From Escherichia coli (GTDB lineage: Bacteria > Pseudomonadota > Gammaproteobacteria > Enterobacterales > Enterobacteriaceae): DNA of 64,000 nt. Positions 22,799 through 63,887 of the stretch are shown piece by piece. How positions within the stretch are numbered: the stretch's first letter is position 1; every line of letters starts with the position of its first letter. The notes under the pieces were generated by a model. It ran no database searches, was not told where the DNA came from, and saw only the letters and a list, made by a program, of their open reading frames with translations. Where the stretch lies: NCBI RefSeq assembly GCF_009931435.1, contig NZ_CP043414.1. One strand, written 5' to 3'. The position numbers and the translations under genes are program-made.

Positions 22799-24157
22799 AT
22801 GTTGAGTATTTTTAAACCGGCGCCACACAAAGCGCGCTTACCTGCCGCGGAGATCGATCCGACTTATCGTCGATTGCGCTGGCAAATTTTCCTGGGGATA
22901 TTCTTTGGCTATGCTGCTTACTATTTGGTTCGTAAGAACTTTGCGCTCGCTATGCCTTACCTGGTGGAGCAGGGATTCTCACGCGGTGATTTAGGTTTCG
23001 CGCTTTCTGGGATCTCGATCGCCTATGGATTTTCGAAATTCATCATGGGTTCGGTGTCGGATCGCTCGAATCCGCGCGTTTTCCTCCCCGCAGGTTTGAT
23101 TCTGGCGGCGGCAGTGATGCTGTTTATGGGCTTTGTGCCATGGGCGACATCGAGCATTGCGGTAATGTTTGTACTGTTGTTCCTCTGCGGCTGGTTCCAG
23201 GGGATGGGGTGGCCGCCGTGTGGTCGTACTATGGTGCACTGGTGGTCGCAGAAAGAACGTGGCGGCATTGTGTCGGTGTGGAACTGTGCGCACAACGTCG
23301 GTGGTGGTATTCCGCCGCTGCTGTTCCTGCTGGGGATGGCCTGGTTCAATGACTGGCACGCGGCCCTCTATATGCCCGCTTTCTGCGCCATTCTGGTGGC
23401 ACTATTCGCCTTTGCGATGATGCGCGATACCCCACAATCCTGTGGCTTGCCGCCGATCGAAGAGTACAAAAACGATTATCCGGACGACTATAACGAAAAA
23501 GCGGAACAGGAGCTGACCGCAAAGCAAATTTTCATGCAGTACGTGCTGCCGAACAAACTGCTGTGGTACATCGCCATCGCCAACGTGTTCGTTTATCTGC
23601 TGCGTTACGGCATCCTCGACTGGTCACCGACCTACCTGAAAGAAGTTAAGCATTTCGCGCTGGATAAATCCTCCTGGGCCTACTTCCTTTATGAATATGC
23701 GGGCATTCCGGGCACCCTGTTATGCGGCTGGATGTCGGATAAAGTCTTCCGCGGTAACCGTGGGGCAACCGGCGTCTTCTTTATGACACTGGTGACCATC
23801 GCAACTATCGTTTACTGGATGAACCCGGCGGGCAATCCCAACGTCGATATGATTTGTATGATTGTCATCGGCTTCTTGATCTACGGTCCTGTGATGTTGA
23901 TCGGTCTGCATGCGCTGGAACTGGCACCGAAAAAAGCGGCAGGTACGGCAGCGGGCTTTACCGGTCTGTTTGGTTACCTGGGCGGTTCGGTGGCGGCGAG
24001 CGCGATTGTTGGTTACACCGTGGACTTCTTCGGCTGGGATGGCGGTTTTATGGTAATGATTGGCGGCAGCATCCTGGCGGTTATCCTGTTGATAGTTGTG
24101 ATGATTGGCGAAAAACGTCGCCATCAGGAATTACTGCAAAAACGCAATGGAGGCTAA
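22799..24157 (+). CDS. glpT: glycerol-3-phosphate:phosphate antiporter (452 aa)
   Basis: 452-aa [35 protein letters not shown]... Confidence 0.95.
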
Positions 24158-25270: not shown

Positions 25271-25457
25271 TCTGCTAAAGCGAAATAATGCTACTACCGG
25301 TTATTCTTTTCATTAACGGGTGCATCCTGTAAAAAGATGCCAACATAATTTTCGTAAAACTCATTCGTTAAAAAAGCTAACACTGTGCATTGTTATTCTT
25401 TAAACAGTATGAATAGGTCTCAATAATAAATTGTAATGCAGTTTATACTGTAAAGTA

Positions 25458-26528
25458 TTATTCGAATTTCGGAAAGGTAAAGAAAATATTAATGTATCTT
25501 ATTAATTTATCATATTGTTCTTGGGTGAATGCTGTTTGCACACCTTCAGGGCAATATTTACCAGTAATAACCAGTTGCCCATTGCTGTGTTGTACCATTA
25601 AACCTTCTTTTTCCTTTGGATCTACAAAATTAGAATTATCAAATGTGAAGATATTTTTTTCCTGTTTTGAGTAAGTAAAGAAATCTCGTGTATAGCTGAA
25701 ACTATCATTTATTAATGGTGCTAACTTTTTGTCGGCGATATCGATAAGCTCACCACTTAATTTATTGATGTATTTAATTTGCTTCAATTTTTTCTGCGCT
25801 TGCACAATTTGCTTGTAGGTGTTTTCAATTTTTTTAGAAGAATTCTTAAATACATCATAGCGTTCCTCGGAGGATGTGTATTTGTACCATTCTGTATTTT
25901 TCTCAGAATGTTGTAGCAGGTCTGTATATTTTTTTTGATCGCTGTAAAGTTGACTTTTAATACTTTCCTCACTGCTGATCTTATAATGTTTATCAGAGTT
26001 GTTTGTTTTTGAAATGTCCTTTTCTGTCAGTGTCTGGTCCGTGTTGTGGGTATTTTCTTTTGCAACATGCTCATTGATGATGTTAATTGCAGTTTCATAT
26101 TCATTTAAATTTATTGTTCTTTGTGAAAGAAACCCTTCTTTGCTTTCGATACTCAAAACACCTTCGTTGTTTTCACCTCTGGTAAAGGTAAGGATATAGG
26201 GTTCATAATCTTCTGCAAATTCATTTTTATACGTTATGACATGCTCGACAAAATGTCTTATTGGTACGAAACCATAACTGTGAACGTCAATTTTTTTGGT
26301 CTTGACACTATCAATTTCATCTGAGGCTTTCGTGAAAAAAGCCAATAAATTAGCTATGTTGTCTGCTGAGGTTGATAACCCGAATCTACTTTGAGATATT
26401 TTTAGAAACTCATTGCAAAAAATCTCAAGTTTCGCGGTTTGTTGTGATTCTTTGTAAATTTCTGCTGTTTGCAATTTATTATTTTGTAAAATATTACAGC
26501 GAGATAAGTGAATAGATGTATTTGGCAT
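25458..26528 (-). CDS. Hypothetical protein, AT-rich orphan ORF (356 aa from the RBS-supported start; 368 aa from the first ATG)
   Basis: Long uninterrupted ORF with about 30% GC in a roughly 51% GC chromosome; AAGGA Shine-Dalgarno 7 nt upstream of the ATG at 26528; no signal peptide or TM helix evident; Lys/Glu/Ser/Asn-rich central segment; no family recognised. Confidence 0.6.
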   Translation of the reverse strand: MPNTSIHLSRCNILQNNKLQTAEIYKESQQTAKLEIFCNEFLKISQSRFGLSTSADNIANLLAFFTKASDEIDSVKTKKIDVHSYGFVPIRHFVEHVITYKNEFAEDYEPYILTFTRGENNEGVLSIESKEGFLSQRTINLNEYETAINIINEHVAKENTHNTDQTLTEKDISKTNNSDKHYKISSEESIKSQLYSDQKKYTDLLQHSEKNTEWYKYTSSEERYDVFKNSSKKIENTYKQIVQAQKKLKQIKYINKLSGELIDIADKKLAPLINDSFSYTRDFFTYSKQEKNIFTFDNSNFVDPKEKEGLMVQHSNGQLVITGKYCPEGVQTAFTQEQYDKLIRYINIFFTFPKFE

Positions 26529-26993
26529 AAATGATTCCTTGTAGTGTGAGTTAACAAGATACAATTTAATCTTTGCAGAATATATTCACTATCAAATTTA
26601 GCTCATTTTATTACGAAGACCTTTACGCATGTTAGAAAGTATCATTATTGTTAATAAATACGGTAATAAGTAACAAACAGATATTGATAACTTCCCTGAC
26701 AAGTTATTAGGTATCCCACTTGAAGATTGAGAATGGCTCCAGAGTAGACTGTGTACTGTTCGCCGGAGTGTCATTACTCTCAACAATCGGTTTTGACAGT
26801 GAGTCGGGCGCTTCATACCGGTTTCTACCTGGAGTCATTGTCACTTCCCTAATCTGGATAAATATTTATCGCTAATTCACAAAGTGGACCAAAATCAGGT
26901 GAAAACGAATTATTACGCATGGTAAAGACTACAGGCCAACTAAGTGTGGCGAATCAGACAATCTTACATTTGTCATCAATCTCATGTCTCACA

Positions 26994-32624: not shown

Positions 32625-35600
32625 ATGAATATGCGGATTATCTTTCTACGCAAGGAGTATTTATCTTTACTCCCGTCAATGATTGCATCTCTTTTCTCTG
32701 TTAACAGTGTTGCGGAGGTTTTGGATTCATGCCAGGGATATGATATCAAAGCGAGTTGTCAGGCCAGCAGGCAAAGCCTTTCAGGCATTACGCAGGACTG
32801 GAGCATCGCCAATGGGCAATGGGTGATTTTTTCGGGTATGGCCAATAATGCTAGCGGTGGCGCCGTATTTTTGCAACAAGGAGCGGAGTTTTCTCTATCG
32901 CCAGAAAATGAAACTGGAATGACTCTGTTTGCCAATAATACTGTCTCAGGAGAATATAATAATGGCGGGGCAATATTTGCTAAAGAAAACTCAACGCTGA
33001 ATCTTACTGATGTTATTTTTTCCGGTAACGTCGCAGGCGGCTATGGTGGCGCAATCTATTCTTCTGGTACTAATGATACTGGTGCCGTCGATTTACGTGT
33101 CACTAACACCATGTTTATCAATAACATCGCTAATGATGGCAAAGGTGGCGCAATTTATACCATCAATAATGATGTCTATTTAAGTGATGATGTTTTTAAT
33201 AATAACCAGGCATATACATCAACAAGTTACAGTGATGGCGATGGTGGTGCAATCGATGTCACCGATAATAATAGCGATATCACGCATCCGTCAGGTTTCA
33301 CAATAATAAATAACACCGCATTTACAAATAACACTGCCGAAGGTTATGGCGGGGCAATTTATACCAATAGCGTGACGGCTCCCTATCTTATTGATATTTC
33401 TGTTGATGACAGCTACAGCCAGAACGGCGGTGTGTTAATCGATGAGAACAATTGCGCAGCAGGCTATGGGGATGGTCCTTCCACTGCGGCGGGCGGCTTT
33501 ATGTATCTCGGCTTAAGTGAAGTTACCTTTGATATTGCTGACGGAAAAACGCTGGTTATCGGCAATACAGAGAATGATGGAGCTGTTGACTCTATTGCTG
33601 GTACCGGGTTGATCACCAAAACAGGTTCCGGCGATCTGGTACTTAATGCAGATAACAATGACTTTACTGGTGAGATGCAGATTGAAAACGGTGAAGTTAC
33701 CCTGGGTCGCAGCAACTCCCTGATGAATGTCGGAGATAATCATTGCCAGGACGATCCGCAAGACTGCTACGGTCTGACGATAGGGAGTATTGATAAGTAC
33801 CAGAATCAGGCAGAGCTAAATGTTGGCTCCACCCAACAAACCTTTGTGCACGCATTGACGGGCTTTCAGAATGGCACTTTAAATATCGATGCTGGTGGCA
33901 ATGTTACTGTTAATCAAGGCAGTTTTGCTGGCACCATCGAAGGTGCTGGTCAGCTCACCATTGCGCAAAACGGCAGCTACGTGCTGGCAGGGGCGCAGTC
34001 GATGGCGCTAACTGGCGATATAGTCGTTGATGATGGCGCGGTGCTTACGCTAGAAGGCGACGCGGCAGATCTCGCCGCTCTCCAGGACGAGCCGCAGTCG
34101 ATCGTGTTAAACGGCGGTGTGCTCGATCTCTCTGATTTCTCCACCTGGCAGAGCGGCACATCATACAACGATGGCCTTGAAGTCAGCGGCAGCAGCGGAA
34201 CGGTTATCGGCAGTCAGGATGTGGTAGATCTTGCAGGCGGAAACGATATGCATATCGGCGGCGACGGGAAAGATGGCGTCTACGTGGTGGTCGATGCGGG
34301 TGATGGGCAGGTCAGCCTGGCAAATGACAATCAATACCTCGGCACAACGCAAATTGCTTCCGGTACGCTGGTGGTGAGTGACAACTCGCAGCTTGGAGAT
34401 ACCCACTATAACCGCCAGGTTATCTTTACCGATAATCAACAAGAAAGCGTGATGGAGATTACTGCCAATGTCGATACTCGCTCTACAACGGTTGAGCATG
34501 GGCGTGATATTGAAATGCGCGCCGACGGTGAAGTGGCAGTTGATGCGGGGGTAGACACGCAGTGGGGCGCACTGATGGCTGACAGCAGCGGGCAGCATCA
34601 GGATGAGGGTAGCACATTGACTAAAACGGGTGCTGGCACCCTGGAGCTGACCGCCAGCGGTACTACGCAGTCTGCGGTACGTGTTGAAGAAGGTACCCTG
34701 AAAGGCGATGTTGCGGATATTTTTCCTTATGCTTCGTCGCTGTGGATTGGTGACGGAGCAACGTTCGAGACTGGCGCAGATCAGGATATCCAGTCTATTG
34801 ATGCTACTTCCAGCGGCACTATCGACATCAGTGATGGCACCGTTTTGCGCCTGACGAGTCAGGATACTTCCGCCGCACTGGATGCCTCGCTGTTTAACGG
34901 CGACGGTACGTTGGTGAATGCCACCGATGGCGTGACGTTGACAGGCGAGCTTAATACTAACCTGGAAACTGACAGCCTGACCTATCTTTCCGATGTGACG
35001 GTTAATGGTGATCTAACCAATATGTCCGGTACAGTCAGTCTGCAAAATGGCGTCGCTGGCGATACGCTCACGGTAAACGGTGATTACACCGGCGGCGGTA
35101 CGTTGTTTCTCGACAGCGAATTAAACGGCGATGACTCGGTAAGCGACCAACTGGTGTTGAACGGCAATACCTCGGGTAACACGACCGTGGTGGTTAACCC
35201 CATTACCGGCACTGGTGAACCGACTTCTACAGGTATTAAAGTGGTTGATTTCACTGCTGATCCCACGCAATTTCAAAACAATGCGCTGTTTAGTCTTGCG
35301 GGCAGCGGCTACGTTAATATGGGAGCGTATGACTACACGCTGGTGGAAGATAACAACGACTGGTATCTGCGATCGCAAGAAGTCACTCCGACGCCGCCGC
35401 CCGATCCGGACCCGACTCCAGATCCTGATCCCACGCCGGATCCTGATCCAACACCCGACCCGGCTCCAGCCCCTACGCCTGCCTACCAGCCGGTGCTGAA
35501 CGCCAAAGTTGGTGGCTATCTCAATAACCTACGTGCGGCAAATCAGGCATTTGTGATGGAGCGACGCGATCACGCTGGTGGCGATGGTCAGACGCTGAAT

Positions 35601-36389
35601 TTACGTGTTATCGGCGGAGATTATCATTACACGGCGGCAGGGCAGTTGGCCCAGCATGAAGACACTTCTACGGTACAGCTTAGCGGCAACTTGTTAAGCG
35701 GATACTGGGGCGATGATGGCCAGTGGATGCTAGGGGCCGTGGGCGGCTACAGCGATAACCAGGGTGACAGTCGATCAAACATGACCGGAACTCGCGCTGA
35801 TAACCAGAACTACGGTTATGCCGTTGGGCTGACCTCAAGCTGGTTTCAGCACCGTAGCCAAAAACAGGGGGCCTGGCTGGATAGCTGGCTGCAATACGCG
35901 TGGTTTAACAATGATGTTTCCGAACATGAAGATGGCGTGGATCATTACCACTCATCGGGGATTATCGCCTCGCTGGAAGCGGGGTATCAGTGGTTACCGG
36001 GGCGTGGTGTGGTGATTGAACCACAGGTGCAGGTGATTTATCAGGGTGTGCAGCAGGATGATTTTACCGCTGCTAACCATGCGCGGGTATCGCAATCGCA
36101 GGGCGATGATCTTCAGACGCGGTTGGGGATACACAGCGAATGGCGTACCGCTGTGCATATCACGCCAACCCTGGATCTGAATTATTATCACGATCCCCAT
36201 TCGGCGGGGATTGAAGAAGATGGCAGCGCTATCAGTGACGATGCGGTGAAGCAACGGGGTGAAATAAAAGTGGGGATAACAGGCAATATAAGTCAGCGAG
36301 TTTCCCTGCGTGGCAGCGTGGTGTGGCAGAAAGGAGACGATGGTTTTGTCCAAACGGCTGGGTTTCTATCGATGAGGGTGAAATGGTAA
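32625..36389 (+). CDS. yfaL: AIDA-I-type autotransporter adhesin (about 1250 aa)
   Basis: Signal-peptide-like N-terminus, long beta-helical passenger with repeated GGAIY motifs, proline-rich linker, and a C-terminal beta-barrel translocator ending in aromatic residues. The true start may be the ATG at 32631 (MRIIFL). Confidence 0.85.
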   Translation: MNMRIIFLRKEYLSLLPSMIASLFSVNSVAEVLDSCQGYDIKASCQASRQSLSGITQDWSIANGQWVIFSGMANNASGGAVFLQQGAEFSLSPENETGMTLFANNTVSGEYNNGGAIFAKENSTLNLTDVIFSGNVAGGYGGAIYSSGTNDTGAVDLRVTNTMFINNIANDGKGGAIYTINNDVYLSDDVFNNNQAYTSTSYSDGDGGAIDVTDNNSDITHPSGFTIINNTAFTNNTAEGYGGAIYTNSVTAPYLIDISVDDSYSQNGGVLIDENNCAAGYGDGPSTAAGGFMYLGLSEVTFDIADGKTLVIGNTENDGAVDSIAGTGLITKTGSGDLVLNADNNDFTGEMQIENGEVTLGRSNSLMNVGDNHCQDDPQDCYGLTIGSIDKYQNQAELNVGSTQQTFVHALTGFQNGTLNIDAGGNVTVNQGSFAGTIEGAGQLTIAQNGSYVLAGAQSMALTGDIVVDDGAVLTLEGDAADLAALQDEPQSIVLNGGVLDLSDFSTWQSGTSYNDGLEVSGSSGTVIGSQDVVDLAGGNDMHIGGDGKDGVYVVVDAGDGQVSLANDNQYLGTTQIASGTLVVSDNSQLGDTHYNRQVIFTDNQQESVMEITANVDTRSTTVEHGRDIEMRADGEVAVDAGVDTQWGALMADSSGQHQDEGSTLTKTGAGTLELTASGTTQSAVRVEEGTLKGDVADIFPYASSLWIGDGATFETGADQDIQSIDATSSGTIDISDGTVLRLTSQDTSAALDASLFNGDGTLVNATDGVTLTGELNTNLETDSLTYLSDVTVNGDLTNMSGTVSLQNGVAGDTLTVNGDYTGGGTLFLDSELNGDDSVSDQLVLNGNTSGNTTVVVNPITGTGEPTSTGIKVVDFTADPTQFQNNALFSLAGSGYVNMGAYDYTLVEDNNDWYLRSQEVTPTPPPDPDPTPDPDPTPDPDPTPDPAPAPTPAYQPVLNAKVGGYLNNLRAANQAFVMERRDHAGGDGQTLNLRVIGGDYHYTAAGQLAQHEDTSTVQLSGNLLSGYWGDDGQWMLGAVGGYSDNQGDSRSNMTGTRADNQNYGYAVGLTSSWFQHRSQKQGAWLDSWLQYAWFNNDVSEHEDGVDHYHSSGIIASLEAGYQWLPGRGVVIEPQVQVIYQGVQQDDFTAANHARVSQSQGDDLQTRLGIHSEWRTAVHITPTLDLNYYHDPHSAGIEEDGSAISDDAVKQRGEIKVGITGNISQRVSLRGSVVWQKGDDGFVQTAGFLSMRVKW

Positions 36390-37251: not shown

Positions 37252-37397
37252 TGGCACTTCTACTCCGTAATTGGCAAGACAAACGAGTATATCAGGCATT
37301 GGATGTGAATAAAGCGTATAGGTTTACCTCAATCAGCGCGGCTGTGTTATAATTTGCGACCTTTGAATCCGGGATACAGTAGAGGGATAGCGGTTAG

Positions 37398-40025
37398 ATG
37401 AGCGACCTTGCGAGAGAAATTACACCGGTCAACATTGAGGAAGAGCTGAAGAGCTCCTATCTGGATTATGCGATGTCGGTCATTGTTGGCCGTGCGCTGC
37501 CGGATGTCCGAGATGGCCTGAAGCCGGTACACCGTCGCGTACTTTACGCCATGAACGTACTAGGCAATGACTGGAACAAAGCCTATAAAAAATCTGCCCG
37601 TGTCGTTGGTGACGTAATCGGTAAATACCATCCCCATGGTGACTCGGCGGTTTATGACACGATCGTCCGTATGGCGCAGCCATTCTCGCTGCGTTACATG
37701 CTGGTAGACGGTCAGGGTAACTTCGGTTCCATCGACGGCGACTCTGCGGCGGCAATGCGTTATACGGAAATCCGTCTGGCGAAAATTGCCCATGAACTGA
37801 TGGCCGATCTCGAAAAAGAGACGGTCGATTTCGTTGATAACTATGACGGCACGGAAAAAATTCCGGACGTCATGCCGACCAAAATTCCTAACCTGCTGGT
37901 GAACGGTTCTTCCGGTATCGCCGTAGGTATGGCAACCAACATCCCGCCACACAACCTGACGGAAGTCATCAACGGTTGTCTGGCGTATATCGATGATGAA
38001 GACATCAGCATTGAAGGGCTGATGGAACACATCCCGGGGCCGGACTTCCCGACGGCGGCAATCATTAACGGTCGTCGCGGTATCGAAGAAGCTTACCGTA
38101 CCGGTCGCGGCAAGGTATATATCCGCGCCCGTGCGGAAGTGGAAGTTGACGCCAAAACCGGGCGTGAAACCATTATCGTCCACGAAATTCCGTATCAGGT
38201 GAACAAAGCGCGCCTGATCGAAAAAATTGCGGAACTGGTAAAAGAAAAACGCGTGGAAGGCATCAGCGCGCTGCGTGACGAATCTGACAAAGACGGTATG
38301 CGCATCGTGATTGAAGTCAAACGCGATGCGGTCGGTGAAGTGGTGCTCAACAACCTCTACTCCCAGACCCAGTTGCAGGTTTCTTTCGGTATTAACATGG
38401 TGGCATTGCACCATGGTCAGCCGAAGATCATGAACCTGAAAGACATCATCGCTGCGTTTGTTCGTCACCGCCGTGAAGTGGTGACCCGTCGTACTATTTT
38501 CGAGCTGCGTAAAGCTCGCGACCGTGCTCATATCCTTGAAGCATTAGCCGTGGCGCTGGCAAACATCGATCCGATTATCGAACTGATCCGTCATGCGCCG
38601 ACGCCTGCAGAAGCGAAAACGGCGCTGGTTGCTAATCCGTGGCAGCTGGGCAACGTTGCCGCGATGCTCGAACGTGCGGGCGATGATGCTGCGCGTCCGG
38701 AATGGCTGGAGCCAGAGTTCGGCGTGCGTGACGGTCTGTACTACCTGACCGAACAGCAAGCTCAGGCGATTCTGGATCTGCGTCTGCAGAAACTGACCGG
38801 CCTTGAACACGAAAAACTGCTCGATGAATACAAAGAGCTGCTGGATCAGATCGCGGAACTGTTGCGTATTCTTGGTAGCGCCGATCGTCTGATGGAAGTG
38901 ATCCGTGAAGAGCTGGAGCTGGTTCGTGAACAGTTCGGTGACAAACGTCGTACTGAAATCACCGCCAACAGCGCAGACATCAACCTGGAAGATTTGATTA
39001 CTCAGGAAGATGTGGTAGTGACGCTCTCTCACCAGGGCTACGTGAAGTACCAGCCGCTTTCTGAATACGAAGCGCAGCGTCGTGGCGGGAAAGGTAAATC
39101 TGCCGCACGTATTAAAGAAGAAGACTTTATCGACCGACTGCTGGTGGCGAACACCCACGACCATATTCTGTGCTTCTCCAGCCGTGGTCGCGTCTATTCG
39201 ATGAAAGTTTACCAGTTGCCGGAAGCCACTCGTGGTGCGCGTGGTCGTCCGATCGTCAACCTGCTGCCGCTGGAACAGGACGAACGTATCACCGCGATCT
39301 TGCCGGTGACTGAGTTTGAAGAAGGTGTGAAAGTCTTCATGGCGACCGCTAACGGGACCGTGAAGAAAACTGTCCTCACCGAGTTCAATCGTCTTCGTAC
39401 CGCCGGTAAAGTGGCGATCAAACTGGTTGACGGCGATGAGCTGATCGGCGTTGACCTGACCAGCGGTGAAGACGAAGTAATGCTGTTCTCCGCCGAAGGT
39501 AAAGTGGTGCGCTTTAAAGAGTCTTCTGTCCGTGCGATGGGCTGCAACACCACCGGTGTTCGCGGTATTCGCTTAGGTGAAGGCGATAAAGTCGTCTCTC
39601 TGATCGTGCCTCGTGGCGATGGTGCAATCCTCACCGCAACGCAAAATGGTTACGGTAAACGTACTGCGGTAGCGGAATACCCGACTAAGTCGCGTGCGAC
39701 GAAAGGGGTTATCTCCATCAAGGTTACCGAACGTAACGGTTTAGTGGTTGGCGCGGTGCAGGTAGATGACTGCGACCAGATCATGATGATCACCGATGCC
39801 GGTACGCTGGTACGTACTCGCGTTTCTGAAATCAGCATCGTGGGCCGTAACACCCAGGGCGTGATCCTTATCCGTACTGCGGAAGATGAAAACGTGGTGG
39901 GTCTGCAACGTGTTGCTGAACCGGTTGACGAGGAAGATCTGGATACCATCGACGGCAGTGCTGCGGAAGGGGACGATGAAATCGCTCCGGAAGTGGACGT
40001 TGACGACGAGCCAGAAGAAGAATAA
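37398..40025 (+). CDS. gyrA: DNA gyrase subunit A (875 aa)
   Basis: 875-aa ORF with the active-site Tyr region and an acidic C-terminal tail; the quinolone-resistance region reads [11 protein letters not shown] (Ser83, Asp87). Confidence 0.97.
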
Positions 40026-40171: not shown

Positions 40172-47018
<6,847 letters not shown>

Positions 47019-59789: not shown

Positions 59790-59982
<193 letters not shown>

Positions 59983-63638: not shown

Positions 63639-63731
63639 AAAAAAAACCGGATGCGAGGCATCCGGTTGAAATAGGGGTAAACAGACATTCAGAAATGAAT
63701 GACGGTAATAAATAAAGTTAATGATGATAGC
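63639..63731 (-). ncRNA. micF: MicF antisense sRNA (93 nt)
   Basis: The reverse complement reads GCTATCATCATTAACTTTATTTATTACCGTCATTCATTTCTGAATGTCTGTTTACCCC...CCGGATGCCTCGCATCCGG followed by eight T: the MicF sequence with its terminator hairpin. Confidence 0.85.
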
Positions 63732-63887
63732 GGGAGATATTCTAGTTGCGAGTGAAGGTTTTGTTTTGACATTCAGTGCTGTCAAATACTTAAGAATAAG
63801 TTATTGATTTTAACCTTGAATTATTATTGCTTGATGTTAGGTGCTTATTTCGCCATTCCGCAATAATCTTAAAAAGTTCCCTTGTAT

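Follow-up and report, generated by a model that had tools for sequence, protein, structure and literature searches.

A wild-type quinolone target site in a K-12-identical GyrA encoded within a 64-kb Escherichia chromosomal region

Does the gyrA gene of this chromosomal region encode a quinolone-sensitive gyrase, and how far does the answer speak for the drug susceptibility of the strain? Ser83 and Asp87 of GyrA sit on helix α4 of the breakage-reunion domain, and S83L and D87N/G/Y are the canonical target-mediated quinolone resistance substitutions. Clinical fluoroquinolone resistance in E. coli almost always begins with gyrA S83L. We analyzed the locus within a window of 64 kb, by which we mean the whole stretch of DNA under study. 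A preliminary description had read both codons as wild type and had regarded the window as a drug-susceptible background.

The gyrA gene, encoding DNA gyrase subunit A, occupies positions 37398–40025 on the plus strand and has 875 codons plus a stop with an ATG start, as given by the list of open reading frames (ORFs) and the translation. The gene order ubiG–gyrA–yfaA–yfaT is the K-12 order, and the locus is the chromosomal gyrA of an Escherichia strain at the usual ubiG/yfaA site. We aligned the encoded protein to K-12 MG1655 GyrA (b2231, NP_416734.1; NC_000913.3 2336793–2339420) and to chain A of 6RKS, one of the K-12 GyrA structures together with 1AB4 and 3NUH. In both alignments 875 of 875 residues are identical, without gaps. 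The protein scores 1258.6 against NF004043 (cut-off 902). The N-terminal type IIA topoisomerase breakage-reunion domain (PF00521) is matched over its full profile at residues 32–507 (E 6.7e-163), and six repeats of the β-pinwheel (PF03989) are matched with 255.9 bits.

The quinolone-resistance-determining region (QRDR), codons 67–106, spans 37596–37715 and has the same amino acids as K-12. Downstream of it, codon 122 (TAT, 37761–37763) encodes Tyr122, which we take to be the catalytic tyrosine of the breakage-reunion domain, as in type IIA topoisomerases. The GyrA box QRRGGKG (residues 560–566; 39075–39095) lies in the C-terminal β-pinwheel and presumably serves in DNA wrapping and supercoiling in this enzyme. 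The acidic C-terminal tail (residues 842–875; 39921–40022) is the same as in K-12. All of these features lie on the plus strand, and the start codon, length, QRDR, Tyr122, GyrA box, acidic tail and ubiG/yfaA flanks are thus shared with K-12 gyrA. The two genes differ at 69 nucleotides (97.4% identity). In complex with GyrB, the window GyrA would be expected to carry out ATP-dependent negative supercoiling, given its 100% identity to 6RKS, which was solved as an active holoenzyme.

Read directly from the plus strand, codon 83 is TCG (Ser, 37644–37646) and codon 87 is GAC (Asp, 37656–37658), both wild type and both at exactly the coordinates given in the preliminary description. They lie within the QRDR motif of codons 78–88, which runs from 37629 to 37661; the interval of 37635–37660 first assigned to this motif was slightly too narrow, and the codon coordinates within it were correct. 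The comparison with a reference gyrA that had been proposed as a check is provided by the ungapped K-12 and 6RKS alignments, and it bears out the earlier claim that the locus carries no canonical fluoroquinolone-resistance mutation: codons 67–106 and indeed the whole protein are those of K-12. We also looked for resistance substitutions beyond codons 83 and 87 and found none, there being zero amino-acid differences from K-12 over the 875 residues. Positions 51, 67, 81, 82, 83, 84, 87, 106, 119 and 196 all carry the wild-type K-12 residue (in addition to Ser83 and Asp87, these are A51, A67, G81, D82, A84, Q106, A119 and A196), and H45 and R462 are also present. As the protein matches the reference throughout, the remaining positions at which gyrase resistance has been reported are wild type too.

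In E. coli gyrase, Ser83 and Asp87 both anchor the water–metal-ion bridge (PMC9917921), through which fluoroquinolones engage the gyrase–DNA cleavage complex; with both anchors unmutated, the locus contributes no target-mediated quinolone resistance. We infer a susceptible enzyme phenotype for the window GyrA, since this very protein has served as wild type in biochemical and structural work. It is nearly certain, on this basis, that the gene encodes a K-12-identical, fully drug-sensitive gyrase A and that no target-mediated quinolone resistance arises from the locus.

The closest gyrA alleles provide a positive control for the codon check. Four of them, at 27–29 nucleotide differences from the window allele, were examined. 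Codon 83 is TTG (Leu) in two (24A16CRGN010 and Z0117EC0005; WP_001281218.1) and TCG in the other two (E200086 and WCHEC050613). The S83L alleles have the same allelic background (28 nucleotide differences), locus and length as the window gene, but have TTG where the window has TCG, a single C/T difference at 37645. Since S83L occurs in near-identical alleles, the check separates both states on the same allelic background. The window itself is one transition away from S83L (C>T at 37645), a substitution that these close relatives already have, and one-step routes are likewise open to D87N (G>A at 37656) and D87G (A>G at 37657).

We then asked how common the wild-type motif is. Of the complete E. 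coli genomes, 2,012 contain the exact 33-mer of the window for codons 78–88. A further 639 have the K-12 spelling, whose GTC at codon 85 departs from the window in the third base alone. The motif is hence wild type in at least 2,651 of the 5,426 complete E. coli genomes (49%), and this is the commonest state. The value of the wild-type QRDR is that of routine genotyping, in that the most frequent chromosomal path to fluoroquinolone resistance is ruled out for the strain.

The window is collinear with K-12 2313–2376 kb in reverse orientation, from menC to micF. Alignment to K-12 and family searches found no IS element, integron, resistance gene or mobile element within the 64 kb. The one departure from collinearity is an insert of ~1.7 kb in the glpQ–inaA gap (25272–26984) that has no K-12 counterpart and a GC content of 33%, compared with 50.7% for the window. 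Its one sizeable ORF (25458–26564, minus strand) is intact, encodes 368 residues and is uncharacterized; it matches no family in Pfam, NCBIfam or PADLOC, and its PHROG match is non-significant. Of the 5,426 complete E. coli genomes, 1,052 carry the insert at this position of the chromosome, O157:H7 among them, and in the carriers its ORF is always annotated as "hypothetical protein". With K-12 collinearity everywhere else and no Pfam or NCBIfam match in this insert, the earlier statement that the window lacks acquired resistance genes stands. The intrinsic loci arnBCADTEF–pmrD, rcsCBD and micF are present in the window.

Several readings could nevertheless separate the wild-type codons from a susceptible enzyme or strain. 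The codons might be misnumbered, or the gene might be the paralogue parC, in which case the residues that we read would miss the resistance hot spots. Misnumbering is ruled out by the ungapped and identical alignments to K-12 GyrA and 6RKS, which share the ATG start with the window gene. As to parC, the gyrA equivalog TIGR01063 gives the protein a score of 1310 bits (cut-off 877) and parC_Gneg one of 580.3 bits, under the cut-off of 628.9 for that family; in addition, the GyrA box is present and the gene is flanked by its K-12 neighbors ubiG and yfaA. We give this reading practically no chance. A wild-type gyrA could also reside in a strain that is not fully drug-susceptible through determinants outside the window, such as plasmid-mediated quinolone resistance (PMQR), efflux up-regulation, fosA or β-lactamases. 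The window covers 64 kb out of a genome of ~5 Mb and does not include plasmids, and published genomes pair wild-type quinolone targets with qnrS1 (PMC13203681). The relative 24A16CRGN010, which has the same locus organization and a 5.48-Mb chromosome, carries S83L, and resistance status thus varies within the lineage. Against this reading, high-level chromosomal resistance is unlikely, because S83L is almost always the first step and the QRDR is wild type here, and the window is free of IS elements, integrons and resistance genes. On balance we regard resistance from outside the window as improbable, though at a level that should not be neglected. The designation of a drug-susceptible background therefore holds for these 64 kb, which have no acquired resistance gene, and does not extend to the strain as a whole. 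Strain susceptibility cannot be deduced from the window because parC, parE, gyrB, the efflux regulators (marR, acrR, soxR), the plasmid-borne genes (qnr, aac(6')-Ib-cr, qepA, oqxAB), and uhpT and fosA lie outside it, as do uhpA, cyaA, ptsI and murA. The case marks the limit of strain-susceptibility statements made from one 64-kb window.

A related reading concerns fosfomycin, for which the preliminary description had pointed to an intact glpT. We found that glpT (22799–24157, plus strand), encoding the glycerol-3-phosphate/fosfomycin transporter, is intact as described: its ORF of 452 codons yields a protein 99.1% identical to K-12 GlpT, and it scores 976.7 bits against NF008433 (cut-off 748). 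The protein differs from K-12 by T348N, E443Q, Q444E and E448K. These substitutions, notably E448K, might lower fosfomycin uptake and leave the window not fully fosfomycin-susceptible, and some genomic surveys of the resistome do list E448K as linked to fosfomycin resistance (PMC13203681), as do some resistome pipelines. However, in one series 43 of the 46 E. coli isolates (93%) had E448K, and the MICs of those that lacked fosA were 1–16 μg/mL (PMC11019110), and E448K, Q444E and E443Q have been described as neutral for GlpT function (PMC10269928); T348N was not found in the latter report. Because E448K is present in 43 of the 46 isolates, the E448 of K-12 looks like the minority state. Reduced uptake through these GlpT substitutions is therefore very unlikely, and we retain the reading of glpT as an intact transporter gene.

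The nucleotide sequence of gyrA is considerably less constant than its product. The 69 nucleotide differences from K-12 are synonymous without exception, corresponding to a pS of 0.109 and a dS of ~0.117 over ~635 synonymous sites. At an equal per-site rate ~216 non-synonymous changes would be expected, and none is observed. Neighbors of similar synonymous divergence do have amino-acid changes relative to K-12 (17 codons in yfaA, and four each in glpT and rcsC). The comparison indicates that gyrA is under strong purifying selection, as expected for an essential enzyme.

The window's gyrA allele is absent from the 5,426 complete E. coli genomes, in which the best match is 99.0% identical. This closest allele, at 27 nucleotide differences, is that of clade I ST485 strains (E200086 and E600003; GEMS isolates). 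E600003, E500002 and other GEMS isolates are the genomes nearest to the window, and their authors type them as "Cryptic I", ST485 (PMC13064198). The ST485 GyrA protein is identical to that of the window, and WP_001281242.1 is also wild type. The differences between the two alleles are not evenly distributed: 24 of the 27 cluster at gene nucleotides 1272–2097, corresponding to window positions 38669–39494 (binomial P = 8.6e-10). Divergence from the ST485 allele is 2.9% in this segment and 0–0.24% in the rest of gyrA. The differences in the segment are all synonymous and lie outside the QRDR, and the protein is still that of K-12. We considered whether the segment had recently entered from an E. 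coli lineage among those sampled and rejected this, as no complete genome is more than 98.4% identical to the window there; for the same reason no donor can be named. The segment is likely an old patch of homologous recombination in gyrA, as judged from the clustering of the differences.

The relationship to ST485 extends over the whole region. The 64 kb around gyrA in the ST485 strains are 98.5% identical to the window, and the divergence of the window as a whole is 1.51% from E600003 versus 4.3% from K-12. E600003 differs from the window in two features: an IS3-family element interrupts its yfaL and the ORF in its glpQ–inaA gap is frameshifted, while both are intact in the window. Across segments of 24–25 kb, ~11–12 of the 5,426 complete genomes are at 97.7–98.5% identity among the matches listed, the count for segment 1–25000 resting on the best twelve matches; for segment 26000–50000 the next listed genome beyond the close dozen is at 95.5%. 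No GTDB species representative contains an exact copy of a 60-mer specific to the window. We regard a cryptic-clade-I-like Escherichia lineage other than ST485 as the most likely source, an assignment that is drawn from one 64-kb region; the markers by which the clades are defined (aes, the chuA-type PCR targets, whole-genome ANI) lie beyond it. As a more specific proposal, the source may be a sub-lineage of clade I that is unrepresented in the 5,426 complete RefSeq E. coli genomes and in the GTDB species representatives, with the ~830-bp gyrA segment at 38669–39494 of separate ancestry and hence a recombination footprint; we consider the chances of this proposal to be about even.

Upstream of gyrA, the ubiG–gyrA spacer of 146 nt has two substitutions relative to K-12, both upstream of TGTTATAAT (37345–37353, plus strand). 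This sequence, read by eye, likely serves the gyrA promoter as an extended -10 element, and the K-12 upstream region shares it with the window. The assignment of TGTTATAAT as a gyrA promoter element follows the K-12 literature, and we take it to be putative. A consensus promoter scan of the window did not report the gyrA promoter, which was missed because no -35 match exists. The two substitutions fall in the 37332–37334 region, just upstream of TGTTATAAT, where the window reads caatcagcgc and K-12 reads caaactgcgc.

Several other loci of the window may be recorded here. The gene yfaL (32625–36389, plus strand), encoding the autotransporter adhesin EhaC, is an intact ORF of 1,254 codons and is the gene most divergent from K-12 (91.9% amino-acid identity). 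The gene yfaS (42399–47018, plus strand), of the α-2-macroglobulin family, is an uninterrupted ORF of 1,539 codons, and the K-12 MG1655 annotation treats it as a pseudogene. Rfam matches place naRNA4, a REP-type palindrome, on both strands of the rcsC–rcsB gap (59902–59978) and the MicF sRNA on the minus strand near the window end (63639–63732), with ompC just past the window.
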